Assembly (NCBI GenBank): GCA_964423315.1
Contig: CAYREO010000005.1
Coordinates: forward strand, 31,834-95,833
From: an uncultured Eubacteriales bacterium
GTDB lineage: Bacteria; Acidobacteriota; Aminicenantia; Aminicenantales; Saccharicenantaceae
DNA length: 64,000 bases
Reading direction: 5' to 3'
Shown here piece by piece: positions 19,339 to 40,324 of this stretch. Positions within the stretch are counted from its first letter, which is position 1; each line of letters begins with the position of its first letter. Below the pieces are notes generated by a model that saw nothing but the letters and a program-made list of their open reading frames with translations, had not been told where the DNA came from and did not search any database. A program made the position numbers and the translations under genes.

Positions 19339-21123
19339 ATGACCGACGCGCCTTGCATCGTCCACATCCTTCCCGACGGGACCAAGGTCAAAGCCCGTCC
19401 GGGCGAGATCCTGGCCGACGTCTTGACCAAGGCCGGCGTTCCGCTCTCGCTTTACTGCCATAAGAAGGGCCTCTGCGGCAAGTGTGTCGTCCGCGTCATC
19501 GGCGGTCCCCTCCCCTTCCCTCATCCGGCCGAAGAGGCCTTGATCCGGGGAAAGCGGCTCAGCCCCGATCACAGGCTGGCCTGCCTCTACGAGATCCGGG
19601 GCGACATGACGGTCGAAATACCGCCGACCTCGCTTATCGGCCGGATCACCGTCCTTGAGACCGGCCTGGCGACATCCGTCGTCCCCGATCCCGCCGTGAG
19701 AAAGATCCCCATGACGTTGGAGGCCGGCGACGCCGGCTCCCCGTCGGCCGCTCTCGAACGGCTCGAAACCCGTCTGCAAACCCGCGATCTCGCCATGCCC
19801 CTGGCGGCTCTCGCCAAGCTCGGCGCTGGCGGCATCCCTTCCGGGAGCGAATTCACGGCCGTCCTCTACGGGGACCGCGAGGTCCTCGACATCGAGCCCG
19901 GTGACACGTCGGGCGAGGTCTACGGCTTGGCTGTCGATCTCGGGACCAGCACGATCGTCGCCGAGCTTGTCGACCTCCGGACGGGAGCGACCGTGACCCG
20001 GGCCTCGGCGATGAACAGCCAAGCCTCCTACGGGGCCGACGTCGTCTCGAGGATCACCTTCGCCTTCGAAGACCCCGACAACCTCCGCCGCCTCCGCAAC
20101 GCCGTCGTCCAGCTCCTCAACGAGCTCGTCGCCCAGACGACCCGCACGAGCGGGGTGCCCCGGCACAGGATCTACGACGCCGTCGTCGCCGGGAACACGG
20201 CCATGAACCACTTCCTGTGCGGCGTGCCCGTGGACTCCCTGGCCCTCGCCCCGTTCAACGCCGTCTTCGCCGCGCTGCCGGCGTTCCCGGCCTCGGCGAT
20301 CGGCCTCAATCTGGACCCCCACGCCCGGATCTATGTCGTCCCCAACATCGGGAGCTTCGTCGGCGGCGACATCACCGCCGGCCTGACCGCCTCGGAGATG
20401 GACGCCAAGCCGGGCCGGGAGCTGTTCATCGATCTCGGGACGAACGGCGAGATCGTCCTCAAGAGGGGCAGGGAATTCGCGGCCGCCTCGACGGCCGCCG
20501 GACCGGCTTTCGAGGGCATGAACATCAGCTGCGGCATGCTGGCCGTCGCCGGGGCCGTCCATCGCGCGGAATGGGACAACGGCTTCAAGCTGGGGACGAT
20601 CGACGGCCTGCCTCCGGCCGGGATCTGCGGGACGGGGCTCATCGACGTCCTGGCCCTGGCCCTCGAGCAGGGCCTGCTCGGCCCTGACGGGCGGATCGCC
20701 GCTCCCGGCAAAAAGATCGCGCTTGGAGAGGGTCTCGCCTTGACCCAGCAGGACATCCGGGCCGTCCAGCTGGCCGTGGCCGCCGTCCGGACCGGGGTGA
20801 CACTCATGCTCAGGGAGTTCCAAGTCTCCTCCCGCCAGCTCGACCGGATCCTCGTCGCCGGCGCGTTCGGCAGCTCGCTCGACGTCCGGAACGCCATGGC
20901 CATCGGCCTCCTGCCCCAAGTCCATCCCGGGAGGGTCACCTTCGTCGGGAACTCCTCGCTGGCCGGGGCCCGGAAGCTGCTCCTCGCGGGGCAGGCGCGG
21001 AAGGCCGCCGAGTCGCTGGCGGCGTCCGTGGCCCACGTGTCCCTGGCCGCGCGGCCCGGCTTCCAGGACGAGTTCGTCAAAGCCATGGAATTCCGGCCGT
21101 ACCGGGTAGCTGGTGATAAATGA
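19339..21123 (+). CDS. RamA-like ATP-dependent reductive activase of corrinoid proteins (N-terminal 2Fe-2S ferredoxin domain plus ASKHA/DUF4445 domain)
   Basis: N-terminus has a plant-type ferredoxin Cys pattern (CHKKGLCGKC...C). The C-terminal ~450 aa have the acetate/sugar-kinase-like fold signatures of the COG3894 RACo family. 594 aa. Confidence 0.8.
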   Translation: MTDAPCIVHILPDGTKVKARPGEILADVLTKAGVPLSLYCHKKGLCGKCVVRVIGGPLPFPHPAEEALIRGKRLSPDHRLACLYEIRGDMTVEIPPTSLIGRITVLETGLATSVVPDPAVRKIPMTLEAGDAGSPSAALERLETRLQTRDLAMPLAALAKLGAGGIPSGSEFTAVLYGDREVLDIEPGDTSGEVYGLAVDLGTSTIVAELVDLRTGATVTRASAMNSQASYGADVVSRITFAFEDPDNLRRLRNAVVQLLNELVAQTTRTSGVPRHRIYDAVVAGNTAMNHFLCGVPVDSLALAPFNAVFAALPAFPASAIGLNLDPHARIYVVPNIGSFVGGDITAGLTASEMDAKPGRELFIDLGTNGEIVLKRGREFAAASTAAGPAFEGMNISCGMLAVAGAVHRAEWDNGFKLGTIDGLPPAGICGTGLIDVLALALEQGLLGPDGRIAAPGKKIALGEGLALTQQDIRAVQLAVAAVRTGVTLMLREFQVSSRQLDRILVAGAFGSSLDVRNAMAIGLLPQVHPGRVTFVGNSSLAGARKLLLAGQARKAAESLAASVAHVSLAARPGFQDEFVKAMEFRPYRVAGDK

Positions 21124-22016
21124 GGAGCCTCCTCCTTCAACTCGCAGCGACCCGGCCCATCCTCCTCGACGGCGCCATGGGGACTGAGCTGATGGCCCGC
21201 GGGCTTCCCCGCGGGGCCTGTCCGGAAGCCTGGAACCTCGAACGGCCGGAGGTCGTCGCCGCCGTCCACGCGGATTACTTCGAGGCCGGGTCCGACGTCG
21301 TCTCCACAAATACGTTCGGCGGCAGCCGCATCAAGCTGGCCGGCCACGGGCTCGACGGCCGGACCTACGAGATCAACGCGGCCGCGGCCCGGCTGGCCCG
21401 GGGCGGGGCGCCCGCCGGCCGGTTCGTGGCCGGGAGCGTCGGGCCGACCGGGAAGTTCCTGAAGCCCCAGGGCGGATTCACCGAAGAGGAGTTCGAGGAC
21501 TCCTTCGCCGAGCAGGCCCGCGGCCTGGCCGACGGCGGGGTGGACGTGCTCCTTCTCGAGACGCACTACGACCTTCGGGAAGCCCTGGCCGGGGTGCGCG
21601 CCGCCCGTCGCGTGACGGGGATCCCCGTGTTCGTGACGATGACCTTCAACGCCCACCGCCGCGGCTTCTTCACTCTCATGGGCGACAGCGTCGCGACGTG
21701 CGCCGAAGAGCTCGAGCGGGCGGGGGTCGCGGCCGTCGGGGCCAACTGCACGCTCAACAGCGAGGAAATGGTCGGCGTGATCAGGGCCTTTGGATGGGCA
21801 ACGGCTCTGCCGCTCGTCGCCCAGGCCAACGCCGGCCGGCCCGTTCTGGGCGCGGACGGGAGCGTCGCGTATTCCCAGAGCTTGGACGACTATGTCAAGC
21901 ACGTCCCGGCCCTCATCGGGGCCGGGGCCCGTTTCGTCGGCGGGTGCTGCGGCACAGGCCCCGCCCATATCCGGGCCATGGCCCGGCTCGTCGCGAAAGA
22001 AGGAGTAACCGCGTGA
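21120..22016 (+). CDS. Homocysteine S-methyltransferase domain protein (MetH N-terminal Hcy-binding module, Pfam S-methyl_trans type), stand-alone
   Basis: ILLDGAMGTELM start, TIM-barrel Hcy-domain motifs and the zinc ligand motif GGCCGTGPAHIRAM. Its ATG overlaps the RamA stop (ATGA). Confidence 0.8.
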   Translation: MRSLLLQLAATRPILLDGAMGTELMARGLPRGACPEAWNLERPEVVAAVHADYFEAGSDVVSTNTFGGSRIKLAGHGLDGRTYEINAAAARLARGGAPAGRFVAGSVGPTGKFLKPQGGFTEEEFEDSFAEQARGLADGGVDVLLLETHYDLREALAGVRAARRVTGIPVFVTMTFNAHRRGFFTLMGDSVATCAEELERAGVAAVGANCTLNSEEMVGVIRAFGWATALPLVAQANAGRPVLGADGSVAYSQSLDDYVKHVPALIGAGARFVGGCCGTGPAHIRAMARLVAKEGVTA

Positions 22017-22663
22017 AGGAAGAGCTGTACAGGAACATGACGGAGGCCATCGTGGCCGGCGACCGGGCCCGGTCCGCCGCCCTGGCCGAAGAAGCCGTCA
22101 AGGGCGGTCTGGACCTGCTCGAGGTCATCGAAAAAGGCTATGTCCCGGGCATCCAGGAGGTCGGCCGGCTGTGGGAGGAGGGCGAGTACTTCCTGCCCGA
22201 GCTCATCACGAGCGCCGAGGCCATGAAAATGGCCATGGCCGTGCTCGAGCCCGAATTGGCCCGCCGGAGCCTCAAAGCCCGGACGGGGGGCAAGGTCGTC
22301 ATCGGCACGGTCGAGGGCGACATCCACGACATCGGCAAGAATCTCGTGGCCTCGATGCTCCAGGCGGGAGGGTTCGAGGTCCACGACCTCGGCGTCGACG
22401 TCCGCTTGGAACGGTTCGTCGAGACGGCCGAAGCGGTGGGCGCGGATTTCATCTGCCTCTCCGCCCTGCTGACGACGACCATGACCAACCAGAGGCGGCT
22501 CATCGCCATGCTCCGCGAAAAGGGCCTGCGGGACAAGTACAAGATCCTCGTCGGCGGGGCTCCCGCCAGCGCCAAGTGGGCCGAAGAGATCGGGGCCGAC
22601 GGCTACGCCGAGAACGCCGTGGCCGCCGTCAAGCTGGCCAAGTCCCTGGCCGGCCAGGGTTGA
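22013..22663 (+). CDS. B12-binding corrinoid protein (MtbC/MttC/MtgC-like: helical cap plus Rossmann B12 domain)
   Basis: DxHxxG cobalamin His-ligand motif (GDIHDIGKN) and Rossmann core (KVVIGTVEG...ADFICLSALLTTT). Start assigned to GTG 22013 (GTGA overlap with the upstream stop) because the N-terminal cap helix KEELYRNMTEAIVAGD would otherwise be lost. ATG 22037 is the alternative. Confidence 0.75.
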   Translation: MKEELYRNMTEAIVAGDRARSAALAEEAVKGGLDLLEVIEKGYVPGIQEVGRLWEEGEYFLPELITSAEAMKMAMAVLEPELARRSLKARTGGKVVIGTVEGDIHDIGKNLVASMLQAGGFEVHDLGVDVRLERFVETAEAVGADFICLSALLTTTMTNQRRLIAMLREKGLRDKYKILVGGAPASAKWAEEIGADGYAENAVAAVKLAKSLAGQG

Positions 22664-22683
22664 AGAAGGGAAGGACCGACATC

Positions 22684-24153
22684 ATGATCGAAGCGAAAAG
22701 ACCGAAGCTGGAGCTTCTGGACCGGGCCTTTGTCGAACGCATCGTGGATGAAGGCCTGACGCTCCTCGAGCGCCAGGGGATGATGATCGAGAACCCGGAA
22801 GCGCTCCGCCTTCTCGGAGAGGCCGGGGCGGACATCGACAGCGGCGGCCAAAGGGCCCGCTTGAAAAGGGACCTCGTCGAGACCTGCCTGGCCTCGACGC
22901 CGGCCTCCATCCGCCTTTACGATCGCGGCGGCGAGAAGGCGTTCGTCGTCGGCGGGGACGAGGTCCATTTCGACCCGGGCTCGGCGGCCGTGACCCTCCT
23001 CGACCATACGACCCGGGAGGAGCGCCGGGCGACGACCCGCGACCTCATCGATTTCTACAAGCTCGTCGAGACCCTGGAGAACATCCATTTCCAGAGCACC
23101 GGGCTGATCAGCACGGACGTCCCGGCCGCCGCCTCCGACGCCTACCGGCTCTATCTCGGGTTGTGTTTTTCGGCCAAGCCGTTCGTCACCGGGACCTTCC
23201 GGGTCGAGGGCTTCAAGCCGATGAAAGACCTGCTGGCCGCGGTCCGCGGCGGCGAAGAGGATCTCCGCCGCAAGCCCCTGGCCATTTTCGACGCCTGCCC
23301 CTCCCCTCCCCTCAAGTGGAGCCACCTGACCGCCCAGAGCCTGATCGACGCGGCCCGGGCCGGCATTCCCTCCGAGCTCATCTCCATGGGCATGACGGGG
23401 GCGACCTCGCCGGTGACCATCGCCGGGACCCTCGTCCAGCATGTCGCCGAGAGCCTCTGCGGCGTGGTCATTTGTCAGCTCGCCAAACCCGGCGCGCCGG
23501 TGATCTTCGGCGGTTCGCCGTCGAGCTTCGACATGAGGAAGGGCACAACCCCGATGGGGGCCATCGAGACGATGATGATCGACGCGGCCTACGCCCAGAT
23601 CGGAAAGTTCTTGAACCTGCCCACTCACGCCTACATGGGCCTGAGCGACGCCAAGGTCAATGACCCCCAAGCCGGTTTCGAGACCGCCCTGGGGGCTGCG
23701 CTGGGGGCCCTGGCCGGGGTCAACGTCATCTCCGGGCCGGGGATGCTGGATTTCGAGAGCGCCCAGAGCTTCGAGAAGCTGGTCATCGACGACGGCATCT
23801 GCGCCATGGTCTACCGGCTGCTGGCGGGCATCGCCCAGCGCGACGAGCCCATCGCCCTGGGGCTGTTCGAGGGCTTCACCCCCGACATGCAGTTCCTGTC
23901 CCATCCCCACACGCGGCGCTGGTACAGGAAGGAGCATATGCCCGCCGGGCTCGTTGACCGGGACCCCTACGACGCCTGGGTCGCGGCCGGCCGGACCTCG
24001 ATCGTCGACAAGGCCCATGCCGATGTCGCCCGGCGGATCGGGGCCTATGCGGCGCCCCCGCTGGACAAGGCCCTCGGCCGGGAGCTCGAGAGGATCATGA
24101 CCTCTTACGCCCGCGCCCAGGGCGCCGAGCATCTCCCGGCGCTGAATATCTGA
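22684..24153 (+). CDS. MttB-superfamily (trimethylamine methyltransferase family, COG5598) methyltransferase, non-pyrrolysine type
   Basis: 489-aa TIM-barrel MttB-family protein with no in-frame TAG, hence not a Pyl-dependent TMA methyltransferase. RBS GAAGGGAAGG precedes ATG 22684. The upstream part of ORF 22171..24153 is a spurious extension overlapping the corrinoid gene in another frame. Confidence 0.85.
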   Translation: MIEAKRPKLELLDRAFVERIVDEGLTLLERQGMMIENPEALRLLGEAGADIDSGGQRARLKRDLVETCLASTPASIRLYDRGGEKAFVVGGDEVHFDPGSAAVTLLDHTTREERRATTRDLIDFYKLVETLENIHFQSTGLISTDVPAAASDAYRLYLGLCFSAKPFVTGTFRVEGFKPMKDLLAAVRGGEEDLRRKPLAIFDACPSPPLKWSHLTAQSLIDAARAGIPSELISMGMTGATSPVTIAGTLVQHVAESLCGVVICQLAKPGAPVIFGGSPSSFDMRKGTTPMGAIETMMIDAAYAQIGKFLNLPTHAYMGLSDAKVNDPQAGFETALGAALGALAGVNVISGPGMLDFESAQSFEKLVIDDGICAMVYRLLAGIAQRDEPIALGLFEGFTPDMQFLSHPHTRRWYRKEHMPAGLVDRDPYDAWVAAGRTSIVDKAHADVARRIGAYAAPPLDKALGRELERIMTSYARAQGAEHLPALNI

Positions 24154-29241: not shown

Positions 29242-30615
29242 ATGATGAAGATGATGAAATGGCTTCCCTGGGCCCTTTTGACGGCGATTCTCGTTCTCGG
29301 CCCCGGCAAGTCCCCGTCCCTCGGACTCCCGGCCGCGGAGGACGAGCTCGTGGCCCGGGCCCGGGCGTTCCTCGAAGCCCTGCAGAAAGGGGATTTCGAG
29401 CGGGCGGCCACGGACTTCAACGAGACGATGATGAAGGTCTCCGGCCCGGAGAAGCTCGCGGCGTTCTGGAAAGAGGTCCCCTCCAAGCTCGGCGTGCTCA
29501 AGCGGCAGACGGGCGCCAGGCGGGACAAGCTCGGCCCCTACGAGATCGTTCTTGTCACCTGCGAGTTCGAGAAGACCGTCCTCGACGCCCGCGTCGTCTT
29601 CGACGAGGACGGCCGGATCGGCGGGTTCCAATTCGTCCCCTCCCTTCCCCCGGCGGCCTACGAGCCTCCCCCCTATGCCGATGCCGCTCTCTTCGAGGAG
29701 ACCGAGATCGAGATCGGGGGCCCGGAATGGAAGCTGCCGGGCACGCTGACCAAGCCGAAAGGCCCGGGACCGTTCCCCGCCCTGGTCCTCGTCCACGGTT
29801 CGGGTCCCAACGACAGGGACGAAACGATCGGGCCCAATAAGCCCTTCAAGGACCTGGCCTGGGGCCTGGCGAGCCGCGGCATCGCCGTCCTTCGCTACGA
29901 CAAGCGGACGAAGGTCCACGGCGCGAGGATGGTCGCGGGGGAGGCGGCGGGAGTCCCTCTGACCGTCATGGAGGAGACCATCGACGATGCCCTCCACGCG
30001 GTCGCTTTCCTGAGCAAGACTTCCGGCGTCGATCCGGGCCGCATCTTCGTTCTCGGCCACAGCCTGGGCGGTTTCCTCATGCCGCGGATCGCCGCGGCCG
30101 CCCCGCCGGGGGCCATCGCCGGGTTCATCGTCATGGCCGGATTGACCCGGCGGCTCGAGGACACCATGCTCGATCAGTATACATACCTGTACGGCCTGGC
30201 CGGCTCCTTGTCCGACGAGGACAAGGCGACCTTCGAGGGGATCAAGGCCGGCGTCGCCCGGGTCAAATCCCTGAAGGACTCCGACCGGACCTCGACCGAA
30301 AAGATCCTCGGCGTTTCCGCGGCCTATTGGCTGGACCTTCGGGACTACGACCCCGCGGACGCGGCCAAGGCCGTCGTCCGGCCGATGCTCTTTCTCCAAG
30401 GGGGCCGCGACTACCAGGTCAAGCCCGTCGACCTCGAGAACTGGAAGAAAGCCCTGGGCGGCCGTGACGACGTGGAATTCAAGCTCTACCCCAAGCTGAA
30501 TCATCTTTTCTTCGAAGGCCAGGGGCCGCCGACCCCCAACGAATACCTTCAGGTCCACGGCAGCGTCGCTCCCTACGTCATCGACGACATCGAAGGCTGG
30601 ATCTCACGGAAATGA
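29242..30615 (+). CDS. Alpha/beta-hydrolase (S9/dienelactone-hydrolase-like) with N-terminal DUF3887-like domain, secreted
   Basis: Signal peptide. GHSLGG nucleophile elbow. LVLVHGSGPNDRDE oxyanion region. Confidence 0.7.
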   Translation: MMKMMKWLPWALLTAILVLGPGKSPSLGLPAAEDELVARARAFLEALQKGDFERAATDFNETMMKVSGPEKLAAFWKEVPSKLGVLKRQTGARRDKLGPYEIVLVTCEFEKTVLDARVVFDEDGRIGGFQFVPSLPPAAYEPPPYADAALFEETEIEIGGPEWKLPGTLTKPKGPGPFPALVLVHGSGPNDRDETIGPNKPFKDLAWGLASRGIAVLRYDKRTKVHGARMVAGEAAGVPLTVMEETIDDALHAVAFLSKTSGVDPGRIFVLGHSLGGFLMPRIAAAAPPGAIAGFIVMAGLTRRLEDTMLDQYTYLYGLAGSLSDEDKATFEGIKAGVARVKSLKDSDRTSTEKILGVSAAYWLDLRDYDPADAAKAVVRPMLFLQGGRDYQVKPVDLENWKKALGGRDDVEFKLYPKLNHLFFEGQGPPTPNEYLQVHGSVAPYVIDDIEGWISRK

Positions 30616-32081
30616 GAGTCGCGTTCTTGGTCTCGGAGGCCGTCCCGTTCGCCAAGACGGGCGGACTGGCCGATGTCGCCGGGGCCCTGCCCCGCTTCCT
30701 CGCCCGGCAAGGCGTCGAGGTCCGGCTGTTCATGCCGTTCTACCGGGAAGTCCGGCGGAAGGGCCTTCCGCTCCGGCGGGTCGTCGACCGGATGAGCGTC
30801 GGACCCGGCAAGGGAGCGCCGGGGTTCTCGGTCCTCGAGCACCAGGCGGAAGGCTTCGCCGTCACGTTCATCGACCAAGAAGGCTATTTCGACCGCGACC
30901 ACCTGTACGGGACCGCCGCGGGCGACGACCCGGACAACGGGGAACGCTTCGCGTTCTTCTCGCGGGCGTCCCTGGAGGCCATGAAAGCCCTGGACTTCGC
31001 CCCCGACATCGTTCACGGCCACGACTGGCAATCCGCGACCGCTTTCGCCTACCTCCGGTTCGTTTACAGGGACGACCCGTTCTTCGCTTCGTCCCGTTCC
31101 CTGTTCACGGTCCATAACCTCGCCTACCAGGGTCTTTTCGAGCGGGCCATCCTCGACCGCGTCGGCCTGCCAGAGTCGCTCTTCGATCCGGCCGCTCTCG
31201 AGTTCTACGGGAAGGTCAACTTCCTCAAATCGGGATTCCTGTACGCCGACGCCATCACCACGGTCAGCCCGACCTACAGCCGCGAGATCCAGACCCCGGA
31301 GTACGGCTGTGGTCTGGACGGGCTCCTGCGGATGCGGTCCCAGGACCTCCACGGGATCCTCAACGGCGTCGATTACCTCGAATGGAATCCCGTGACCGAT
31401 CGGTTCCTCCCGGCCCGCTTCGGCCCCCGCGATCTCGCCGGCAAGCGCACGTGCCGTTCCGAGCTTCTCCGGATGTTCGGGATGTCCGACATCCCCACGG
31501 CCGCGGTTGTCGGCATGGTCACCCGCCTGGCCGGCCAAAAGGGGCTCGACATCGTCTGCGAGGCCCTGGACGACATCCTGGCGCTCGGCGTGAAGATCGT
31601 GATCCTGGGGGCGGGAGACCGGTCCATCGAGGACTTTCTCAGCCGGGCCAGGGCCCACCGGCCCGACGGGCTCGGGCTCAAGATCGCTTTCGACGAGCGG
31701 CTCGCTCACATGATCTATGCCGGCAGCGACATGTTCCTGATCCCCTCCCGATACGAGCCCTGCGGTCTGACCCAGATGTACGCGCTGAAATACGGGACGG
31801 TGCCCGTCGTCCGGGCCACGGGGGGGTTGGACGACACGATCCAGGAGTTCGACCCGGCGGCCCGGGCGGGCAACGGCTTCAAGTTCCCGTCGCCGACCGC
31901 CGCCGACCTGGTCGCCGGGCTCCGCCGGGCCCTCGATCATTTCACCGACAAGGAAACGTGGCGGGCTCTCGTGCGCAACGCCATGGCTTCCGATTTTTCC
32001 TGGACCCGTTCGGCCGGGAGCTACCTCGCCCTTTACCGGAAGATCCTCAAGAGCCCGCGCTCCTGGTGTCCCGTCTCATAA
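30612..32081 (+). CDS. glgA: Glycogen synthase (ADP-glucose-type, GT5)
   Basis: N-terminal KTGGLADV motif, GT-B fold, C-terminal GGLDDTI. 489 aa. Confidence 0.9.
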   Translation: MRVAFLVSEAVPFAKTGGLADVAGALPRFLARQGVEVRLFMPFYREVRRKGLPLRRVVDRMSVGPGKGAPGFSVLEHQAEGFAVTFIDQEGYFDRDHLYGTAAGDDPDNGERFAFFSRASLEAMKALDFAPDIVHGHDWQSATAFAYLRFVYRDDPFFASSRSLFTVHNLAYQGLFERAILDRVGLPESLFDPAALEFYGKVNFLKSGFLYADAITTVSPTYSREIQTPEYGCGLDGLLRMRSQDLHGILNGVDYLEWNPVTDRFLPARFGPRDLAGKRTCRSELLRMFGMSDIPTAAVVGMVTRLAGQKGLDIVCEALDDILALGVKIVILGAGDRSIEDFLSRARAHRPDGLGLKIAFDERLAHMIYAGSDMFLIPSRYEPCGLTQMYALKYGTVPVVRATGGLDDTIQEFDPAARAGNGFKFPSPTAADLVAGLRRALDHFTDKETWRALVRNAMASDFSWTRSAGSYLALYRKILKSPRSWCPVS

Positions 32082-32243
32082 ATCCGTTTCCCAAGTCCTC
32101 TGCAGAGCCGGGACATTTCCAGGGGGGAGTCGAGCTCCCCCCTCGGCGCTTCGCTCCGCTCCGCTGACCCCCTGAGGGGAACGCCGCCGTCCCCTCGAAC
32201 TCCCCCGCGGTGATGCCTCTCCAGATGCTCCCACATCACCGAG

Positions 32244-33290
32244 TTATTTCCGGGACGCATCACCAGTGTCCCGGAGGAATTCGGCCGCGGACTCGGGAGG
32301 GACGGGATTGATATAGAATCCTGTCCCCCATTCGAAGCCGGCGACCTTGGTCAGGATCGGGAAGATCTCCAGATGCCAGTGGTAGATCCTGTCGATCTCC
32401 GGCCAGGCCTGGCGCGAATGGGAGGGGTTCGGAGCTTGATGGAAGACCATGTTATAGGGCGGGTCCCCGACCTTGTCCTTGAGGGCCGTCAGCACGGCCT
32501 TCATGGCCTCGGCCAATGCGAGGAGCTCGTCATCGCCGGCATCGGTGAAGAACGGCGAGTGGTGGGCGGGATAGATGGCCGTCTCGAACGGGAAGCGGGA
32601 GGCGAAGGGGGTGAACGCCGTGAAATGACGGTTATGATGAACGACCCTCTGCCCGGATGCGTTCTCCTCCCGGAGGACCCGGCAGAACACGCACTCCTTG
32701 AAGCCCCGGTGGAGCCTCTCGGCGCCGTAGATCTCCTCCTTGACCCTCTTGGGGACGATGGGTGTGGCCACGATCTGCGAATGGGGGTGGCTCAGGGAGG
32801 CCCCGGCTTCCCGCCCCTTGTTCTTGAAGATCTGGACATACCGGTAATGGAACTCGGACTCGATGGCCCGGATCCGCTGCTGGAACACGGACAGAACGTC
32901 CCGGATGTGGCCGACCGGCAGGTCGCCGAGCTCCAGGCCGTGGTCCGGGTTCTCGATGACGACCTCGTGAACGCCGGTCCCCTCCATCCAGGGGTAAATG
33001 CCCCGCGTCCTTTTCGGCTGGGAGGGGCCGCGGCTGAGCGCCGGGAACTTGTTGGGGACGACGCGGACCGTCCAGCCGGGCGAATCGGGAGACGTGCCGG
33101 AGGGCCGGACGGTCGTGGCGATCTCGGGCGGGGTCTTGACCTCGCTGCCCTCGCAGAAGGGGCAGAACGCGCGCCTCTCCTCGGCGGCGGGAGCGGGGCG
33201 TGCCGGGCGGTAATCGTCGGGCCTCTTGCCCCGCTCGGTGGCGATGATGACCCACCGTCCGCTGATCAGGTCCTTCCGCAGCTCGGACAT
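32244..33290 (-). CDS. GalT-family (HIT-superfamily) hexose-1-phosphate nucleotidyltransferase: UDP-glucose--hexose-1-P uridylyltransferase, or possibly ADP-glucose phosphorylase
   Basis: Zinc CPFC motif and HPHSQ histidine-triad active-site motif. Start at ATG 33290, overlapping the response-regulator stop (ATGA); the longer ORF to 33656 is a spurious overlap. Confidence 0.7.
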   Translation of the reverse strand: MSELRKDLISGRWVIIATERGKRPDDYRPARPAPAAEERRAFCPFCEGSEVKTPPEIATTVRPSGTSPDSPGWTVRVVPNKFPALSRGPSQPKRTRGIYPWMEGTGVHEVVIENPDHGLELGDLPVGHIRDVLSVFQQRIRAIESEFHYRYVQIFKNKGREAGASLSHPHSQIVATPIVPKRVKEEIYGAERLHRGFKECVFCRVLREENASGQRVVHHNRHFTAFTPFASRFPFETAIYPAHHSPFFTDAGDDELLALAEAMKAVLTALKDKVGDPPYNMVFHQAPNPSHSRQAWPEIDRIYHWHLEIFPILTKVAGFEWGTGFYINPVPPESAAEFLRDTGDASRK

Positions 33291-33646
33291 CAGCGCTCCA
33301 GGAGCTCGCGGATCTTCGCCTTGAGCTCGTCGAGCGAGGAGGACTTGACGACGTAGGCGTCGGCCGCCCAGGTCATGAAATCCTCTTTGTAGCTCTGGTA
33401 GGCCGAGTTGATGATGATGGGGATGTCCTTGCGGAGGCCCATGATCTGGGTGATGAGCTCGATGCCGTCCTTGCCGGGCATCCGGATGTCGGTGACGATG
33501 AGGTCGAACTCGGACGCGCTGAGCGCTTCGAGAGCGGCCTCCGCATCGGTGACGGCCGTCACGTCGTATCCGTCCTTGCTCAACTCCTCCTCGTAGAGAA
33601 GGCAGAGCGGTTGTTCGTCCTCGACGAGCAGGATCCTCTTGCCCAT
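33290..33646 (-). CDS. Single-domain response regulator (CheY-like receiver only)
   Basis: ILLVEDE...D, phospho-acceptor in LIVTDIRMPGKDG, conserved K in AYVVK. 118 aa with no output domain. Confidence 0.85.
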   Translation of the reverse strand: MGKRILLVEDEQPLCLLYEEELSKDGYDVTAVTDAEAALEALSASEFDLIVTDIRMPGKDGIELITQIMGLRKDIPIIINSAYQSYKEDFMTWAADAYVVKSSSLDELKAKIRELLER

Positions 33647-33652
33647 GGCGGT

Positions 33653-34993
33653 TCACTCCCTTTCGCGGTATTTGAAGGACAGCTTGAACAGCGCCCCGCT
33701 GCCCACGCGGCTCCGGACCTCGATCTTGCCTCCGCAGGTGTCCATGACCCTTTTGATGAACGGCAGGCCGAGGCCCATGCCCTTGTCCTTGGTCGTGAAA
33801 AAGGGCCTGAAAAGCTGCTCCTTATCGGGGTTGGAGATGCCCTTCCCGGTGTCGCGGACCGAGAGAAAATACCAGGAGGCGTTCTTCCTGTACCCGCGGA
33901 CCGAGATCCGGCCCCCCTGGGGCGTGGCCTCGAAGGCGTTGTCGAGAAGATTGCGAAGGACCTCCCCGAAGGAGGTCGGGTCGCAGAACAGGAGCGGCAA
34001 CCTCTCCTCGATGTGGACCCTCAGATCGTAGGCCAAGCTGCGTTCCCGGACCTCGGGGCTCCCGATGACCGACTCGATGACCGGGCCGGGATCGAAGAAC
34101 ACCGGCTCCTTGAGGCTGACCTTGAGGAAGTGCCCCATCTGGAAGATGATGTGCTCGAGGCGGCGGATCTCGTCACGGATGATCCGGGTGTTCCTCTCCC
34201 TTTTGTCCTCGGGGAGGCCGGGCTGAAGCAGCTGGTCGGCGAACCCGCCGATGGCCACGATCGGGTTCCGGATCTGATGGGTCACGAACATGGCCATCTC
34301 GCCCATGGCGGATGTCTTCTCCATTTCGAGCAGCTTGCGATGGAGACTGGATGAGTACACGTAGTTGCCTGCGATCAGCCCGCAGAGGCCGGCCAGCTTG
34401 ATGTCCCCGGGGCTGATGGGCGTCCGGGTGATGGCGTTGTCGAGGACGATCTCCCCGAGGACCTCGTCGCGGGCGAGAAGGGGGATGCAGAGGAACTCAT
34501 CGACCTGGATGATGTCCAGGAACCGGCGATCGACGAGCGGTTCCTCGCGGGCGTTGCGGACGAGGAGGATCTCCTGGCGGCTCGAGGCCATGGCCGGGAT
34601 GAAGGCGTTGTCCTCGTCGGCCGCGTAGACGAGGTCCCGGATCCGGCGACTGAGCGTATCCTCGTTCTTGCGGACCAGGGCCCGGTTGTGCTCGACGATC
34701 TCGATGTAGCCGATGCCGGGCGTCGACAGGACCTCCCAGATATCGCCGGCTTCCTCGGCCGAACTCGGGCCCAGCCACATCTCGCCCTTGAGCCTGTCCC
34801 CGTCGCGGAGAAAGAGCATGGCCCGGTTGAAGCCGACCCCCGAGCCGGAGGTCAAGGCCGTCAGCGTGACAAGAAGGTTGTCCTCGAGGGAAAAGGGTTG
34901 AAAGAAGCTCTGGGCGATGATGGACAGGAGCATCAGCTCCTTGGGGGCGCCGGGCTCGATCTCGAAGGACTTGAAATCGTACCTTTCGATCAT
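33653..34993 (-). CDS. GAF-domain sensor histidine kinase (cytoplasmic)
   Basis: Start at ATG 34993 (MIERYDF), overlapping the glgC stop (ATGA). N-terminal GAF-like region. H-box (FVTHQIRNP) and HATPase_c motifs (LLDNAFEAT, DTGKGI, GMGLGL). Confidence 0.8.
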   Translation of the reverse strand: MIERYDFKSFEIEPGAPKELMLLSIIAQSFFQPFSLEDNLLVTLTALTSGSGVGFNRAMLFLRDGDRLKGEMWLGPSSAEEAGDIWEVLSTPGIGYIEIVEHNRALVRKNEDTLSRRIRDLVYAADEDNAFIPAMASSRQEILLVRNAREEPLVDRRFLDIIQVDEFLCIPLLARDEVLGEIVLDNAITRTPISPGDIKLAGLCGLIAGNYVYSSSLHRKLLEMEKTSAMGEMAMFVTHQIRNPIVAIGGFADQLLQPGLPEDKRERNTRIIRDEIRRLEHIIFQMGHFLKVSLKEPVFFDPGPVIESVIGSPEVRERSLAYDLRVHIEERLPLLFCDPTSFGEVLRNLLDNAFEATPQGGRISVRGYRKNASWYFLSVRDTGKGISNPDKEQLFRPFFTTKDKGMGLGLPFIKRVMDTCGGKIEVRSRVGSGALFKLSFKYRERE

Positions 34994-36174
34994 TCGCACG
35001 TCCAGCCCTTGGGTACGACGCGGACGCCTCCCCTGCTGATCTTGAACTGACGCTTGTCGCGCTCGTCGTCGAAGCCGGCCTTGAACCCGGCCGGAAGGAC
35101 CGAGAACTTGTCGACGATGGTCTTGCGGAGCCGGGCCCCCCGGCGGACCTCGACGCCTTCGAAGAGGATGGAATCGACGATCTCGACGCCGGGTTCGAGG
35201 CTGACGCCGGCTGAGACGATGGAGTTCTCGACGCGGCAGTCCAGGAGCGTGCAGCCGGACCCGATGATGGAGTTCCGGACGGTCTCCCCGGAGATGAAAG
35301 TCGGCGGGTACTGGGGCTTGTATGTCCGGACCGGCCAGTTCGGGTCTTTCAGGATCGTCGGGGGGGACGGCGACAGGAAGGCCATGTTGGCCTCCCAATA
35401 GGCGTCGAGGGTCCCGATGTCCTCCCAATACTCCTCGAACGGGAAGGCGTAGATCCTGTGACTGCGGACCAGGCCGGGGATGACGTCCTTGCCGAAATCG
35501 TGGGAACTCCTCGCGTTGCGGGCGTCCTTGATGAGGGCCTTGATGAGGACCGGGGTCTTGAAGAGATAGATGCCCATGGACACGAGGCTTTTCGCGGGAT
35601 CCCAGGGCGTCCCCGATGGGGTTTTGGGCTTCTCGACGAAGTCGATGATCCGGCTGTCGCTGTCGACGCCGATGACGCCGAACCGGGACGCGTCCTGGAC
35701 CGGAACGACCTTGGTCATGATGATCGCATCGGCATCGGTCTCGGCATAGAAGCGGGCGAGCTTCCGATAATCGGCGTTGTAGATGTGGTCGCCCGAAAGG
35801 ATGAGAACGGCCTCCGGCCCCTCCTGCTGGATGGTGTAGATGTTCTGGAAAACGGCATCGGCCGTGCCCTCGTACCAGTGGTCGCTGACCCGGCCCTGGG
35901 CGGGGAGGGAGATGATGTAATCGCCGCTCTCGGCGTGGAAGATGTTCCACCCGTTGAGGATGTGCCGCTCGAGGGACAGGGATTTGTACTGGGAAAGGAG
36001 GGCGATCCGGCGGAACCCCGAATTGAGCGCGTTCGACAGGCTGAAATCGATGATCCGGTAGGTGCCGAGGAAAGGGACGGACGGCTTGGCCCGGTCCTTC
36101 GTCAGAGGGTAAAGCCTTTCCCCCTTGCCTCCGCAGAGCAGCATGACCAGGACCTTCTTCCGCGGCTGTTCCAT
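34990..36174 (-). CDS. glgC: Glucose-1-phosphate adenylyltransferase
   Basis: LCGGKGERLYPLT nucleotide-binding motif and a C-terminal left-handed beta-helix. 394 aa. Confidence 0.9.
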   Translation of the reverse strand: MEQPRKKVLVMLLCGGKGERLYPLTKDRAKPSVPFLGTYRIIDFSLSNALNSGFRRIALLSQYKSLSLERHILNGWNIFHAESGDYIISLPAQGRVSDHWYEGTADAVFQNIYTIQQEGPEAVLILSGDHIYNADYRKLARFYAETDADAIIMTKVVPVQDASRFGVIGVDSDSRIIDFVEKPKTPSGTPWDPAKSLVSMGIYLFKTPVLIKALIKDARNARSSHDFGKDVIPGLVRSHRIYAFPFEEYWEDIGTLDAYWEANMAFLSPSPPTILKDPNWPVRTYKPQYPPTFISGETVRNSIIGSGCTLLDCRVENSIVSAGVSLEPGVEIVDSILFEGVEVRRGARLRKTIVDKFSVLPAGFKAGFDDERDKRQFKISRGGVRVVPKGWTCE

Positions 36175-36239
36175 GCTCGAACCTTCTTTCGCTCCTTCCT
36201 CCCCCGCGATCCCCGGGCCATTATATCAAATTCCGGTCC

Positions 36240-37655
36240 CTAGAGGCCTTCCTGGGCGATGAGATAGATGAGGGCGGCGAGGACGATGGCTTGGAGCTCG
36301 AGCTCCCGAGGGTGGACGCTGTCGAGGACGTCGAGGGCCGAATGATGGACGTCGAAGTAGGTCTGGGAATTGAGGATGACGGCCGCCGGGACCGTCCCTT
36401 GCTCGACGAGCGGCCCGATATCGACGCCGCCGCCGCCGGGGACGAGAAAATGGATCCCCAAAGACCTGAAGAGGTCCTCATGAGCGCGGATCCTTTCGAA
36501 CGCTTCCCTTGAGGCGCCTCCCGCGGCGAGCCCGAGGGGCAGGAATCCCCCTCGGTCCGCTTCGGCGGCGAACAGGTGCCTCTCCCCTCTTCTCTGCGGG
36601 GCCCGGACGTAGGCCCGACCCCCTGTCCCGCCGAATTCCTCGTCCATGAACAGGACGGCCCGGATGGTCCTCCGGGGCTTCAGCCCGGCCGCCTTGATCA
36701 GCCTGAGGGCTTCCAGGCTGACGGCGCATCCCGCCCCGTCGTCGTGGGCGCCCGTCCCGAGGTCCCAGCTGTCGAGATGGCCGCCGACAAGGACGATCTC
36801 CTTCGGGAACTCGGAGCCGGTGATATCGCCGACGACATTGGCCGAGACGACGGGCGCTTCGGTCCGGCAGTCCATCCGAAGACGGACCCGCAGGCCCGGC
36901 TGGTCCTTGAGCAGCGAGCTCAGGCGGTCGGCCCCCCGCGTGCTGACCGCGGCCGCCGGGATCGGCGGCACGCCGTCCTCGTACTGCAGAAGCCCTGTGT
37001 GGGGATGGTCATCGAGGCGGAAGGTCAGCGATCGGACGAGGACGGCCGCGGCCCCGAGCCGGGAGGCTTCCGCGGCCCCCCGGACCCTTTGATCGGCGGC
37101 CTGGCCGTAGGCGCCGAAGGCGTCCATCATCGTCCTGTTCATGGGGCGGTTATAGAAGACGATCCGGCCCTTGACGGCGGGGCCCAAGCGGGCGAGCTCC
37201 TCGAAAGAACGGACCTCGACGACCGGAGCGATGAGCCCGCCGGCCGGAGTGGCGATGCTTCCGCCGAGGGCGCAGATCGAAAGGGGGATCTCACGTTCGC
37301 CCGGCGCGCCTGGAACGGCGGTCTCGGCGACGGTCCCGCGGACCCAGCGGCCGACAGTGACGGGCTCCGTATGGACATTCTCGAAATCCAGGTCCTTCAT
37401 GATCCGCAGACAGACCTCGACGGCCTGGTCCGCTTGGGGGGAGCCGGTCAGCCTCGGACCGACCGCCGTGATCCGTTCCAGGAATTCGAAGGCCTTCTCT
37501 TCGTGGAGCCCGATGGCGCGCATCCGGTCCACGGCTTCCCGATGGTCTTGGCGGGGAAGGCTTGGGGCGGCGATCCCGCCGGTCGCGAGGGCGAATGACA
37601 GGAGCAGCGCCGGGAGGGCCCGGAACGGACGGCCGGTCAGCGGTGGAGGAAGCAT
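36240..37655 (-). CDS. M28-family zinc aminopeptidase, secreted
   Basis: Signal peptide. GHLDSW, DDGAG and DEEFGG metal-ligand motifs. Confidence 0.75.
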   Translation of the reverse strand: MLPPPLTGRPFRALPALLLSFALATGGIAAPSLPRQDHREAVDRMRAIGLHEEKAFEFLERITAVGPRLTGSPQADQAVEVCLRIMKDLDFENVHTEPVTVGRWVRGTVAETAVPGAPGEREIPLSICALGGSIATPAGGLIAPVVEVRSFEELARLGPAVKGRIVFYNRPMNRTMMDAFGAYGQAADQRVRGAAEASRLGAAAVLVRSLTFRLDDHPHTGLLQYEDGVPPIPAAAVSTRGADRLSSLLKDQPGLRVRLRMDCRTEAPVVSANVVGDITGSEFPKEIVLVGGHLDSWDLGTGAHDDGAGCAVSLEALRLIKAAGLKPRRTIRAVLFMDEEFGGTGGRAYVRAPQRRGERHLFAAEADRGGFLPLGLAAGGASREAFERIRAHEDLFRSLGIHFLVPGGGGVDIGPLVEQGTVPAAVILNSQTYFDVHHSALDVLDSVHPRELELQAIVLAALIYLIAQEGL

Positions 37656-38716
37656 CGTTCGGAGTCCACTTCACCGGGTTTTCTGGTGACGATCATGCCC
37701 AACCCGAGCTCGTCGGCCCGAGCGATGACCTCCTGGTCCTTGACGGACCCGAGGGGATAGATGACGGAGGTGATGCCGTGCCGGGCGGCCAGCTCCACGA
37801 CGTCGGGGAACGGCATGAAGGCGTCTGAGGCCAGGACGCAGCCTTCGGGCCCGTACCCGCGCCGGGACAGGCGGACGGCGTCCTCGGCGGAATCGATGCG
37901 GCTCCTCTGCCCCGACCCGATGCCGTGGGTCTTGTCGGACTTGCCGATGACGACGGCGTTGGACCGCGTGAAGCAGGCCACCGTCCAATTGAAGATCGCG
38001 GCCCGGACCTCCTCCTCGTCCGGCCTGCGGGCCGAGACGACCTCCACAGAATCGGGGGAGACGATCCTCGAGTCGAACCTCTTCTGGACGAGCAGGCCGC
38101 CGGCGACACGCTTGAATTCCAGCCCGTTGTCGACCGCCGGGGCGTCCAGGGAGGCCCCCATCCGGACGACCCGCAGGACCTTCCGCGAGGCCAGGACCTC
38201 GAGGGCTTCGGGGGCGAAGTCGGGGGCGTAGACAACCTCGATGTTCCGGGGGCTCTCGACGAGCAGGCGGGCCAGGGGCTCCGTGACCCGATAGTTGAAG
38301 ACGTCGACGCTGCCGAAGTTCGAGAGCGGATCGCATTTCCAGGCCTTCTCGAAAGCTCCGACAGGGTCGTCGCCGAGGGCCGCGCCGCTCGGCATCTCGT
38401 GCTTGATGAGGACGCAGACGTGACGGCCCGGGAACACCGCGGTCAGCTTGCGGGCCAGGCGCTGGCCGAGGTCCATGTCCCCGACATTGATATAGCTGAG
38501 CCCCTTGGTGCCCTCCTGCAGGACCTCGATCGAGGCCATGTTCGGACCCGAGGCGCCCGTTTCCTGATAGAAGGCCGCCGGATACCCGGGATTCTCGCCG
38601 TAGCGCATGGAGAACTTCTTGACGAAGCCGGTCTCCCCGAGAGCGATGGTCTCCGGGAAGTCCTCGCGGATCTTGGCCTGGTACTGGCTCCGGGCCGTCC
38701 GTTCGGGTTTGCTCAT
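37637..38716 (-). CDS. purH: Stand-alone AICAR transformylase (PurH AICARFT domain only; no MGS-like IMP cyclohydrolase domain)
   Basis: 359 aa with the AICARFT signature (ASDAFMPFPD). Lacks the N-terminal ~200-aa IMPCH domain of bifunctional PurH. Confidence 0.7.
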   Translation of the reverse strand: MSKPERTARSQYQAKIREDFPETIALGETGFVKKFSMRYGENPGYPAAFYQETGASGPNMASIEVLQEGTKGLSYINVGDMDLGQRLARKLTAVFPGRHVCVLIKHEMPSGAALGDDPVGAFEKAWKCDPLSNFGSVDVFNYRVTEPLARLLVESPRNIEVVYAPDFAPEALEVLASRKVLRVVRMGASLDAPAVDNGLEFKRVAGGLLVQKRFDSRIVSPDSVEVVSARRPDEEEVRAAIFNWTVACFTRSNAVVIGKSDKTHGIGSGQRSRIDSAEDAVRLSRRGYGPEGCVLASDAFMPFPDVVELAARHGITSVIYPLGSVKDQEVIARADELGLGMIVTRKPGEVDSERCFLHR

Positions 38717-38719
38717 GGT

Positions 38720-39505
38720 TCAGGTCCTTTCGTGACGGTTGATGATGTGGATATCGACGATCGCGGGATCCGCGACGGAGGCGAAAACGCAGGCCACGGC
38801 GACCCGGAGATCGCGGCCGCCCGGCTGCGGGCCGAGGTCCGTATAGATGTGTTCGGCCGCTTCCCGGGGCCCCCTTGACGGCAGGGACAGCCGGCGCGGC
38901 TCGCCTTCAAAGCACGGCAACGGGTCCGCGTTGGGGCCTAGGTAGGTCGAAACGAAGTGCCCCTGCCCGGGATGGAGCGGGACCTCGAAAAAGCTCCGCC
39001 GGGTCTCGCCTTCCGGGCCCCGGCGGATGACGCTCAGGGCCGCTTGGCCCGCGGAAGCGCATCCGCTGATGCGGGGGGTGAAGATCGGCGCGTCGGGTTC
39101 GAAGTCCCAGGTCCGAAGGGCCCGGGAGAGGACGGCGACGGGGTCCCGGTCCTTGTCCAAGGCGTTCCGGATGTCCGGCGTCTGCTTGCCGTTCGAAACG
39201 GCCAGTCCCGAGGTCCCGTAAAGAAGAGAAGGATAGACGAGCAGATCGACCTGGCCTTGTTTGAGGACGTCCTCGTCGGTCGGCCTGACCCAGACGCCGC
39301 CGCCGTCGTGGACCAGACAGCGGGCCTGGCTCGAGGGTGATCGGCCCGTAATGGCGTAGACGATCACGAATTCCCGGCCCGAGGGGGACAGGCCGATCGA
39401 CAGCAGGCGTCCGGGGTACTCAAGGGACGAGAGACCGGCAGGGACTTCGGTCATCATGGGCATCCTTTCGGACCTATTGATAGCATAGGCGGTGCGGGGA
39501 GTCAA
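38720..39505 (-). CDS. purO: Archaeal-type IMP cyclohydrolase (PurO family)
   Basis: N-terminal region (PGRLLSIGLSPSGREFVIVYAITGRS) resembles the PurO fold. Lies immediately upstream of, and co-directional with, the stand-alone AICARFT gene. The assignment is pattern-based, with no search run. Confidence 0.55.
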   Translation of the reverse strand: MTPRTAYAINRSERMPMMTEVPAGLSSLEYPGRLLSIGLSPSGREFVIVYAITGRSPSSQARCLVHDGGGVWVRPTDEDVLKQGQVDLLVYPSLLYGTSGLAVSNGKQTPDIRNALDKDRDPVAVLSRALRTWDFEPDAPIFTPRISGCASAGQAALSVIRRGPEGETRRSFFEVPLHPGQGHFVSTYLGPNADPLPCFEGEPRRLSLPSRGPREAAEHIYTDLGPQPGGRDLRVAVACVFASVADPAIVDIHIINRHERT

Positions 39506-39559
39506 AGCGCCGGGAGTCCTTGAGGGCCGTCAGCCAATCTGTTAGAATCGCGACGGACC

Positions 39560-40324
39560 GTGCCGAGAAACCAAGGAGTGCCGACGATGAAAAAGCTCGA
39601 TTATCGGGAGGAATCCTATCGGGACCCCGAGTTCCTCGAGTCCCTGGAAGGCCGGACCCTCCGTATCCTGAGCGAATATCTGAGCCCGATGACCCGCCTG
39701 GACAAGGCGAAGATCAACAGCACGATCCTCTTTCTGGGCTCGTCCAAGGCCGACCCGACGGACGCCCGGTCCCCGTTCTACCGGTATTATTGGGAGGCCG
39801 AGGAGTTGGCCTTCCTCCTCGCGAGCTGGGCCATCTCGCTCAAGAAGCCCAAGGGCAAGGACTTCGTCATCTGCACCGGGGCGGGCCCGGGGATCATGGA
39901 GGCCGCCAACCGCGGCGCGGCCCGGGCGGGGGGCAAGACGATCGGCATGAACATCTCCCTGCCGCAGCCTCAGCCGGCCAACCCCTATGTCAGCCCCGAC
40001 CTGAGCTTTTCCTTTCACTACTTCTTCATGCGGAAATTCTGGCTTGTCTACAAGGCCAAGGCCGTCATCATCTTTCCGGGAGGCTTCGGGACGCTGGACG
40101 AGTTCTTCGAGATCGTGACCCTCCTGCAGGTCAGCAAGATCTCCAAGAAAGAGCTGGTCCTCGTCCTCTACGGGGAGGATTACTGGCGGGATCTCATCAA
40201 GTTCGATTCCATGGTCGCCAAGAACGCCATCTGCGCCGGGGACCTCGAGCTCTTCAAGATGCTGTCGACCCCCGGCCGGGCGTTCTCCTATCTCAAAAGA
40301 AAGCTGGAGGCCCTCATCCGGTGA
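39560..40324 (+). CDS. LOG-family protein (TIGR00730; cytokinin riboside 5-prime-monophosphate phosphoribohydrolase-like)
   Basis: PGGFGTLDE motif and a GAGPGIMEAANRGA Rossmann motif. An alternative start is MKKLDY at 39587. Confidence 0.75.
   Translation: MPRNQGVPTMKKLDYREESYRDPEFLESLEGRTLRILSEYLSPMTRLDKAKINSTILFLGSSKADPTDARSPFYRYYWEAEELAFLLASWAISLKKPKGKDFVICTGAGPGIMEAANRGAARAGGKTIGMNISLPQPQPANPYVSPDLSFSFHYFFMRKFWLVYKAKAVIIFPGGFGTLDEFFEIVTLLQVSKISKKELVLVLYGEDYWRDLIKFDSMVAKNAICAGDLELFKMLSTPGRAFSYLKRKLEALIR

Follow-up and report, generated by a model that had tools for sequence, protein, structure and literature searches.

A conserved purO-purV gene pair as the probable replacement of bifunctional PurH in uncultured Aminicenantes bacteria

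Introduction

The 64,000-nucleotide stretch of DNA analysed here (positions 31,834 to 95,833 of contig CAYREO010000005.1, assembly GCA_964423315.1), referred to below as the window and numbered from its first nucleotide, comes from an uncultured bacterium that is labelled Eubacteriales and assigned by GTDB to the Aminicenantia (Acidobacteriota). Two adjacent genes in it, purO and purV, are predicted to code for a PurO-type inosine 5′-monophosphate (IMP) cyclohydrolase and for a stand-alone 5-aminoimidazole-4-carboxamide ribonucleotide (AICAR) formyltransferase, corresponding to the AICARFT half of PurH. Both predictions concern the two final steps in de novo purine synthesis, from AICAR through its formylated form (FAICAR) to IMP.

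Stand-alone forms of the PurH domains have been named purV and purJ in a survey of 1,403 genomes (Cruz et al. 2019, Genome Biol Evol; PMC6486802). The same survey recorded 22 purO genes in bacteria (Firmicutes, Actinobacteria, Spirochaetes, Fibrobacteres and Epsilonproteobacteria, with Acidobacteria and Aminicenantes unmentioned), of which 19 occur together with purV; it found purV/purO to be anticorrelated with purH in bacteria, and its conclusion was that purO can no longer be regarded as a signature of archaea (PMC6486802). In methanogens the partner of PurO is often the formate- and ATP-dependent PurP, not a folate-dependent AICARFT (PMC3261824). No paper dealing with purine synthesis in Aminicenantes emerged from a literature search.

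Here, we describe the purO-purV pair of the window, the conservation of its genes and neighbourhood among relatives, and the case for its having taken the place of PurH.

Results

Organization of the purO-purV locus

The two genes are transcribed in the same direction and lie back to back (Table 1). The purO stop codon at 38722-38720 is separated by a 3-nt gap from the purV ATG at 38716, and the junction reads ...GAAAGGACC TGA ACC ATG... (CAC GAA AGG ACC TGA ACC ATG AGC). A preliminary description of the window, made from the sequence alone, had given this same-strand order and gap, both of which can be read at the junction on the minus strand; the gene ends that it listed also stand, and its purO start at 39505 has been corrected to 39457. 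The longest purO open reading frame, 38720-39505, encodes 261 aa from an in-frame TTG. The start is almost certainly the ATG at 39457, with the TTG at 39505 probably unused, because PurO homologues are 243-246 aa long, an identical protein in public databases is called at 245 aa, and the ATG is preceded, 5 nt upstream, by a GAAAGGA motif. A second GAAAGGA motif sits within the 3′ end of purO, and together with the 3-nt spacing it suggests that purO and purV are translationally coupled.

Table 1. Features of the purO-purV locus (window coordinates)
Feature	Position	Strand	Basis
purO, predicted PurO-type (Ntn-fold) IMP cyclohydrolase, 245 aa	38720..39457	-	PF07826, fold, conserved core
purV, predicted stand-alone 10-formyl-tetrahydrofolate-dependent AICAR formyltransferase (AICARFT half of PurH), 359 aa, ATG start	37637..38716	-	PF01808 without MGS
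Shine-Dalgarno-like GAAAGGA of purV, within purO 3′ end, 8 nt ahead of purV ATG	38725..38731	-	read from sequence
Shine-Dalgarno-like GAAAGGA of purO, 5 nt upstream of ATG at 39457	39463..39469	-	read from sequence
Divergent intergenic region between purO and LOG-family gene, 102 nt	39458..39559	.	
LOG-family gene (PF03641, 'possible lysine decarboxylase')	39560-40324	+	
Secreted M28 peptidase (PF04389), context only, no part in purine function	36240..37655	-	

PurV is an AICARFT-only protein

PurV matches Pfam PF01808 (AICARFT_IMPCHas) with 205.7 bits (cut-off 25; E = 1.6e-60) over profile positions 49-309 of 311, and no other Pfam family, including any MGS/IMPCH domain, at E <= 0.01. Its alignment to the NCBIfam purH model PRK00881 covers positions 195-504 of 510 and scores 278 bits, short of the cut-off of 402 solely because PurV lacks the other half of the model; the start of PurV coincides with the interdomain boundary of PurH at position 195. 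The stand-alone AICARFT model PRK07106 (NF005492) gives 94 bits against a cut-off of 415, and by these scores PurV is nearer to the C-terminal domain of bacterial PurH than to the PRK07106 lineage. It is also ~40-45% identical to a reconstructed E. coli PurH C-terminal sequence.

The best solved relative of PurV is Mycobacterium tuberculosis PurH (3zzm, residues 222-516), in which IKHANPCG, GMGQVNR and ASDAFFPF align with the PurV motifs IKHEMPSG (containing K105-H106), GSGQRSR (267-273) and ASDAFMPF (296-303). K105-H106 is the counterpart of the catalytic Lys-His pair of AICARFT, K266/H267 in avian ATIC. All 120 of the closest PurV clusters are 359-365 aa long and contain PF01808 only. The 359-aa AICARFT-only protein of the preliminary description is therefore borne out by the PF01808-only match and the lack of any MGS match in 37637-38716; its 'archaeal-style' epithet does not suit this half, which resembles the bacterial PurH C-domain. 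Homologues of PurV in Aminicenantes are annotated by NCBI as 'hypothetical protein' and by JGI as bifunctional 'AICAR transformylase/IMP cyclohydrolase PurH', despite having no cyclohydrolase domain.

PurO has the predicted fold and conserved core of an IMP cyclohydrolase

PurO matches Pfam PF07826 (IMP_cyclohyd) with 94.5 bits (cut-off 28.1; E = 8e-27) over profile positions 1-173 of 192, and neither this match nor that of PurV to PF01808 can be put down to chance. A single-sequence phmmer search against PDB gave no match; a profile built from 31 PurO homologues recovered the Methanothermobacter thermautotrophicus enzyme (MthPurO; 2ntk, 1kuu) at E = 2.7e-07. An AlphaFold2 model of PurO has a mean predicted local distance difference test score (pLDDT) of 84.2 and a predicted template modelling score (pTM) of 0.86, with a low-confidence loop at residues 175-181. 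In Foldseek its top three matches are 2ntm, 2ntk and 1kuu, with probability 1.00, target-normalised TM of 0.84-0.85 and 20% identity, and the next after the MthPurO entries are generic N-terminal nucleophile (Ntn) hydrolases at E >= 8e-3. The model places PurO in the four-layer alpha-beta-beta-alpha, Ntn-hydrolase-like fold of MthPurO.

Conservation was assessed by aligning the window PurO and an MthPurO fragment with 140 representatives of the family that are diverse among themselves. E120 and R129 (MthPurO E104 and R112) are present in 100% of the 140 relatives, and Y14, R17, R39, Y75, N89, G90, D122 and T127 (MthPurO Y2, R5, R25, Y59, N73, G74, D106 and T110, respectively) in 99%; R46, aligned to MthPurO T32, is found in 96%, and S40 (MthPurO S26) in 94%. 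MthPurO contacts its substrate through 13-14 residues; of those named in PMC6486802, Ser26 is retained as S40, Ser24 and Tyr56 are replaced by G38 and L72, and Asn54 adjoins an alignment gap and is paired with a Lys in the PurO profile alignment. Kang et al. in 2007 reportedly found that MjE102Q abolished PurO activity and that MjR31K reduced it, and R39 and R46, the two candidate counterparts of MjR31, are both among the conserved residues (99% and 96%). Catalysis by PurO has been attributed to Arg, Glu and Tyr side chains (PMC6797443), and in the alignment the catalytic Glu, Arg and Tyr positions are kept in the window PurO. The preliminary description had called 38720-39505 PurO from motif resemblance at its N-terminus, and the call stands on the PF07826 match, the PurO fold and the conserved active site.

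The long-form PurO family and its link to purine synthesis

An exhaustive profile search for the long-form PurO family, to which the window protein belongs, yielded 1,835 clusters at 50% identity, 275 of them at E <= 1e-30. Among members that carry a label bacteria predominate, and some are DPANN archaea (Woesearchaeota, Nanoarchaeota). Relatives of one distant member are labelled Zixibacteria, Desulfobacterota, Aminicenantes and DPANN archaea, and their usual name at NCBI and JGI is "IMP cyclohydrolase".

One family member (P0483) is a PurE-PurO fusion of 423 aa (PF00731 + PF07826), whose PurO half shares 44% identity with the window PurO. The fusion gene is the first of an operon (locus L082, 805-5814) that continues with an AICARFT-only gene (390 aa), purB and purC, an arrangement that, without recourse to homology with the archaeal enzyme, connects the long-form family with purine synthesis. 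No description of the PurE-PurO architecture was found in the literature examined. Genes for TFIIS/RPB9-type zinc-ribbon proteins adjoin this operon, and the contig is suggested to be archaeal, possibly DPANN.

Conservation and neighbourhood of the pair

A scan of one genome per species identified 234 genomes with PurO relatives, and the loci of the best 80 were analysed. Most of these 80 are labelled Aminicenantes or Acidobacteriota; the rest carry generic labels for metagenome-assembled genomes, for example 'uncultured Eubacteriales'. In 79 of 81 loci purV follows purO directly on the same strand, with 6-26 nt between the aligned gene ends, and of the two exceptions one lies at a contig end and the other in CP070825.1, considered below. 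An identical purO-purV pair has been assembled independently in another data set. Comparison with five relatives gives ratios of nonsynonymous to synonymous substitution (dN/dS) of 0.27-0.33 for purO and 0.09-0.11 for purV, and both genes are under purifying selection.

Conservation extends beyond the pair, in the order glycoside hydrolase, asparaginase, RlpA, divergent LOG-family gene, purO-purV, glgC, histidine kinase and GalT-like gene, and the LOG-family gene is the divergent neighbour of purO in 71 of the 80 loci. This conserved wider neighbourhood argues for vertical inheritance: the purO-purV pair is ancestral and vertically inherited across the recovered Aminicenantes/Acidobacteriota genomes, with no recent transfer from archaea. 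The M28 peptidase gene, in contrast, is directly downstream of purV in close relatives only and was detected in 37 of the 80 loci; in the window its ATG overlaps the 3′ end of purV by 19 nt, and it may be co-transcribed with the pair.

The promoter of purO-purV presumably lies in the intergenic region shared with the LOG-family gene, where the sole sigma-70-like site (39520-39548) is on the plus strand and faces LOG. A promoter and terminator scan of 36000-39800 gave no minus-strand promoter and no terminator, and is uninformative for a non-model phylum. No Rfam RNA, ZTP riboswitch or purine riboswitch was detected at the gathering threshold in the window, nor in 39380-39700 at E <= 1. The LOG family includes some nucleotide 5′-monophosphate nucleosidases, and, as a speculation, the shared 102-nt region might co-regulate the synthesis of purine nucleotides and their breakdown. 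The guanine-plus-cytosine (GC) content of the window is ~65%, and that around purO-purV is not atypical. An exact-sequence cluster look-up of the window's proteins returned no names or accessions.

Searches for the PurH cyclohydrolase domain

A Pfam survey found no IMPCH/MGS domain in the 64-kb window. When a reconstructed E. coli PurH probe was run against 1.43 Mb of sequence, comprising the window and the related loci, its AICARFT half was found in 80 subjects and its IMPCH half in none (best E = 0.18).

Other features of the window

A Lon protease gene (8267-10711, plus strand) contains two in-frame TAG codons 45 nt apart, at 10187 and 10232, with no frameshift. The first occupies the position of the conserved Glu in a ...GE(V/I)MQES.Q... 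motif, consistent with a GAG to TAG change, and the frame runs on through the catalytic PEG.TPK(D/E)GPSAG region. Stop codons in 40 other window genes are TAG in 3, TGA in 30 and TAA in 7. The Lon TAG codons could mark a pseudogene, be errors of assembly or sequencing, or be read through locally.

The products of three genes at 19339-24153 (plus strand) are a corrinoid activation protein of RACo type (594 aa), a protein with a PF02574 homocysteine S-methyltransferase domain (298 aa) and an uninterrupted MttB-family methyltransferase (PF06253, 660 aa). The cluster looks like a non-pyrrolysine MttB-type system for demethylation of quaternary amines (e.g. glycine betaine), passing C1 units to a folate or corrinoid pathway. 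Between 14000 and 18000 the GC content falls to 0.51-0.57, compared with about 0.65 elsewhere, in a segment that spans parA/parB (15876-17496, minus strand) and flanking non-coding sequence and that may be near a replication origin or represent a distinct segment. A glycogen-metabolism cluster at 30612-36174 includes a glgA-like starch synthase gene, a GalT/HIT-like gene and glgC, with an embedded gene for a GAF-domain histidine kinase, and is kept downstream of purO-purV in many relatives.

Discussion

We propose, at a probability of roughly 0.8, that purO and purV form a two-gene unit for the two final steps in de novo purine synthesis and replace bifunctional PurH; this keeps, as the best reading, the non-orthologous replacement of the PurH cyclohydrolase module put forward in the preliminary description. 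The host, of the Aminicenantes/Acidobacteriota lineage, most likely makes IMP by way of separate and tightly coupled genes for PurO and AICARFT instead of a fused PurH, and we infer that purH is absent from the rest of its genome. PurV would transfer the formyl group of 10-formyl-tetrahydrofolate to AICAR, yielding FAICAR, and PurO, with an Ntn-hydrolase fold unrelated to the MGS-like domain of PurH, would cyclise FAICAR to IMP, an activity predicted for it from homology and gene context. The 3-nt spacer and the internal Shine-Dalgarno motif would allow the two proteins to be produced together. In PurH/ATIC the formyltransfer is thermodynamically unfavourable and is drawn forward by the cyclisation, which provides a rationale for the back-to-back arrangement of purO and purV with its short spacer and internal motif.

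Several observations weigh against this interpretation. At one locus (L050, 9914-13723, from CP070825.1, the complete chromosome of Aminicenantes bin112) purO has no purV downstream. The window holds no other pur genes by Pfam survey, and purB, purC and purE are not found near purO in the 80 loci. PurO scores only 28.4 bits against the archaeal equivalog TIGR01922 (purO_arch; cut-off 158.35) and 47.2 bits against NF003167 (cut-off 150), evolves about three times faster than PurV as judged by dN/dS, and differs from MthPurO at three positions (S24 to G38, Y56 to L72 and H76 to Q92). Two of the MthPurO residues, Ser24 and Tyr56, are named active-site residues of PurO; in bacterial PurOs they are variable and Ser26 is conserved (PMC6486802). 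A literature search found no biochemical characterisation of any bacterial PurO. Lastly, purH and purO co-occur in three bacterial genomes, and purH, purV and purO in one (PMC6486802).

The exceptional locus in CP070825.1, the sole complete one lacking an adjacent purV, has genes for a malic enzyme and a tyrosine-type integrase downstream of purO, and suggests that purO and purV were separated there by rearrangement or insertion. As to the low equivalog scores, we take PurO to be, on sequence criteria, a member of a divergent long-form subfamily and not an archaeal-type PurO equivalog. The preliminary description had called the split 'archaeal-style', a term that we abandon for PurO given these scores, the ~20% identity to MthPurO and the predominance of bacteria in the long-form family.

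A first alternative is that the pair is redundant or specialised, with a canonical purH or purJ in another part of the genome and purO-purV serving as a back-up or condition-specific route. The published co-occurrences offer a precedent for this, and the sequence inspected amounts to 64 kb of this genome and about 20 kb per relative. Yet the pair is kept across the recovered Aminicenantes genomes under purifying selection, no IMPCH/MGS signal appears within the 1.43 Mb searched, and in bacteria purV/purO generally anticorrelates with purH (PMC6486802), all of which makes redundancy a rather improbable explanation.

We regard as considerably less probable still that the PurO-like protein is a diverged Ntn-fold paralogue acting on another substrate, with FAICAR cyclised by a different enzyme. 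Its distance from the characterised PurO, the sub-threshold archaeal equivalog scores, the three altered positions, a dN/dS above that of purV and the lack of a bacterial PurO assay in the literature could all be read in this way. They are opposed by the near-invariance throughout the family of the Glu, Arg and Tyr residues and most conserved-core positions, by the tight pairing of purO with an AICARFT gene, the product of which supplies the PurO substrate, and by the family member that is fused to PurE in an operon with purV, purB and purC.

Recent horizontal acquisition of an archaeal purO was also considered and rejected on the equivalog scores and the conserved synteny. PurO was first described in archaea, and the presence of the long-form family in DPANN archaea as well implies some inter-domain transfer somewhere in its history. 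However, the arrangement of divergent LOG, purO and purV is conserved class-wide, the GC content around the locus is not atypical, the archaeal equivalog scores are very low, and bacterial and archaeal PurOs separate in the tree of Cruz et al. (PMC6486802), so that a recent transfer is highly improbable.

The least credible alternative, an assembly error or pseudogene in which the 359-aa gene derives from purH by truncation or a frameshift and the upstream reading frame is incidental, gains something from the presence in the window of at least one apparently damaged gene (Lon) and is rejected on the uniform lengths and PF01808-only content of the 120 nearest PurV clusters and the purV dN/dS of about 0.1, in addition to the clean PurV start at profile position 195, the bona fide PF07826 protein encoded upstream and the independent assembly of the identical pair.

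The replacement of PurH by purO-purV that we favour here is closest to the bacterial purV/purO systems already reported (PMC6486802), which likewise combine a stand-alone AICARFT with a PurO homologue, are often adjacent, are inferred to replace PurH, and conserve Ser26 while Ser24 and Tyr56 vary. Unlike those, the window pair occurs throughout the Aminicenantes lineage, away from other pur genes, and its PurO family is far larger (1,835 clusters) than the survey implied. Archaeal PurO (M. jannaschii MJ0626; M. thermautotrophicus MTH1020, PDB 2NTK/2NTL/2NTM/1KUU) shares with the window protein its Pfam family, the predicted Ntn-hydrolase-like fold (TM 0.85) and the Glu, Arg, Tyr and most other core positions, but is only ~20% identical to it, has Ser24, Tyr56 and His76 in place of G38, L72 and Q92, and is shorter (~200 aa compared with ~245 aa) because the window PurO has insertions such as the loop at 175-181; the window protein also falls below the TIGR01922 and NF003167 cut-offs.

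The AICARFT half has its own parallels. Halobacteria and Methanosaeta also combine PurO with a folate-dependent AICARFT lacking the MGS cyclohydrolase (PurV(-PurN)/PurO), but in Halobacteria the AICARFT is fused to PurN, whereas here it is a free 359-aa protein encoded next to, and apparently coupled with, purO. With bifunctional PurH/ATIC (TIGR00355, PRK00881) the window system shares the homology of PurV to the C-terminal AICARFT domain and the predicted overall chemistry from AICAR through FAICAR to IMP; it differs in having no N-terminal MGS-like IMPCH domain, the cyclohydrolase being a protein of unrelated fold encoded by a separate gene. PRK07106 proteins and the bacterial purV/purJ split are further cases of stand-alone AICARFT in bacteria, but PurV belongs to a different lineage from PRK07106 (94 bits compared with the cut-off of 415), and its partner is PurO and not the MGS-type PurJ.

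The preliminary description had implied that such a replacement in a bacterium would be new; bacterial purV/purO standing in for purH was published in 2019 (PMC6486802), and PurO proteins are already annotated automatically. What is new here is the lineage, that is, a fixed two-gene unit across the recovered Aminicenantes genomes situated away from other pur genes, together with the apparent size of the family.

A broader picture can be drawn, which taken as a whole we consider unlikely: that the recovered Aminicenantes genomes lack purH and use a physical complex of PurO and AICARFT, that PurO is a major bacterial route to IMP, and that it is shared with DPANN archaea by inter-domain transfer. 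Were this true, the complex would be a non-covalent version of the FAICAR hand-off in the PurH fusion, the fixed spacing of 3 to 20 nt and internal Shine-Dalgarno motif would serve 1:1 co-assembly, and PurO would be a major and not a marginal enzyme, with 1,835 clusters compared with the 22 genomes known in 2019.

For the favoured reading, in which purO-purV replaces PurH, the consequences are more immediate. Given the NCBI and JGI names for PurV, automated pathway calls for Aminicenantes will either miss step 9 or give step 10 to the wrong protein. Recognition of the purO-purV pair would complete the reconstruction of de novo purine synthesis in an abundant, as yet uncultured lineage of sediments and the subsurface. 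It also takes further the 2019 result that PurO is no signature of archaea, by pointing to a large family dominated by uncultured bacteria, in which the conserved and compact purO-purV pair would make a convenient test case for assay of a bacterial PurO.

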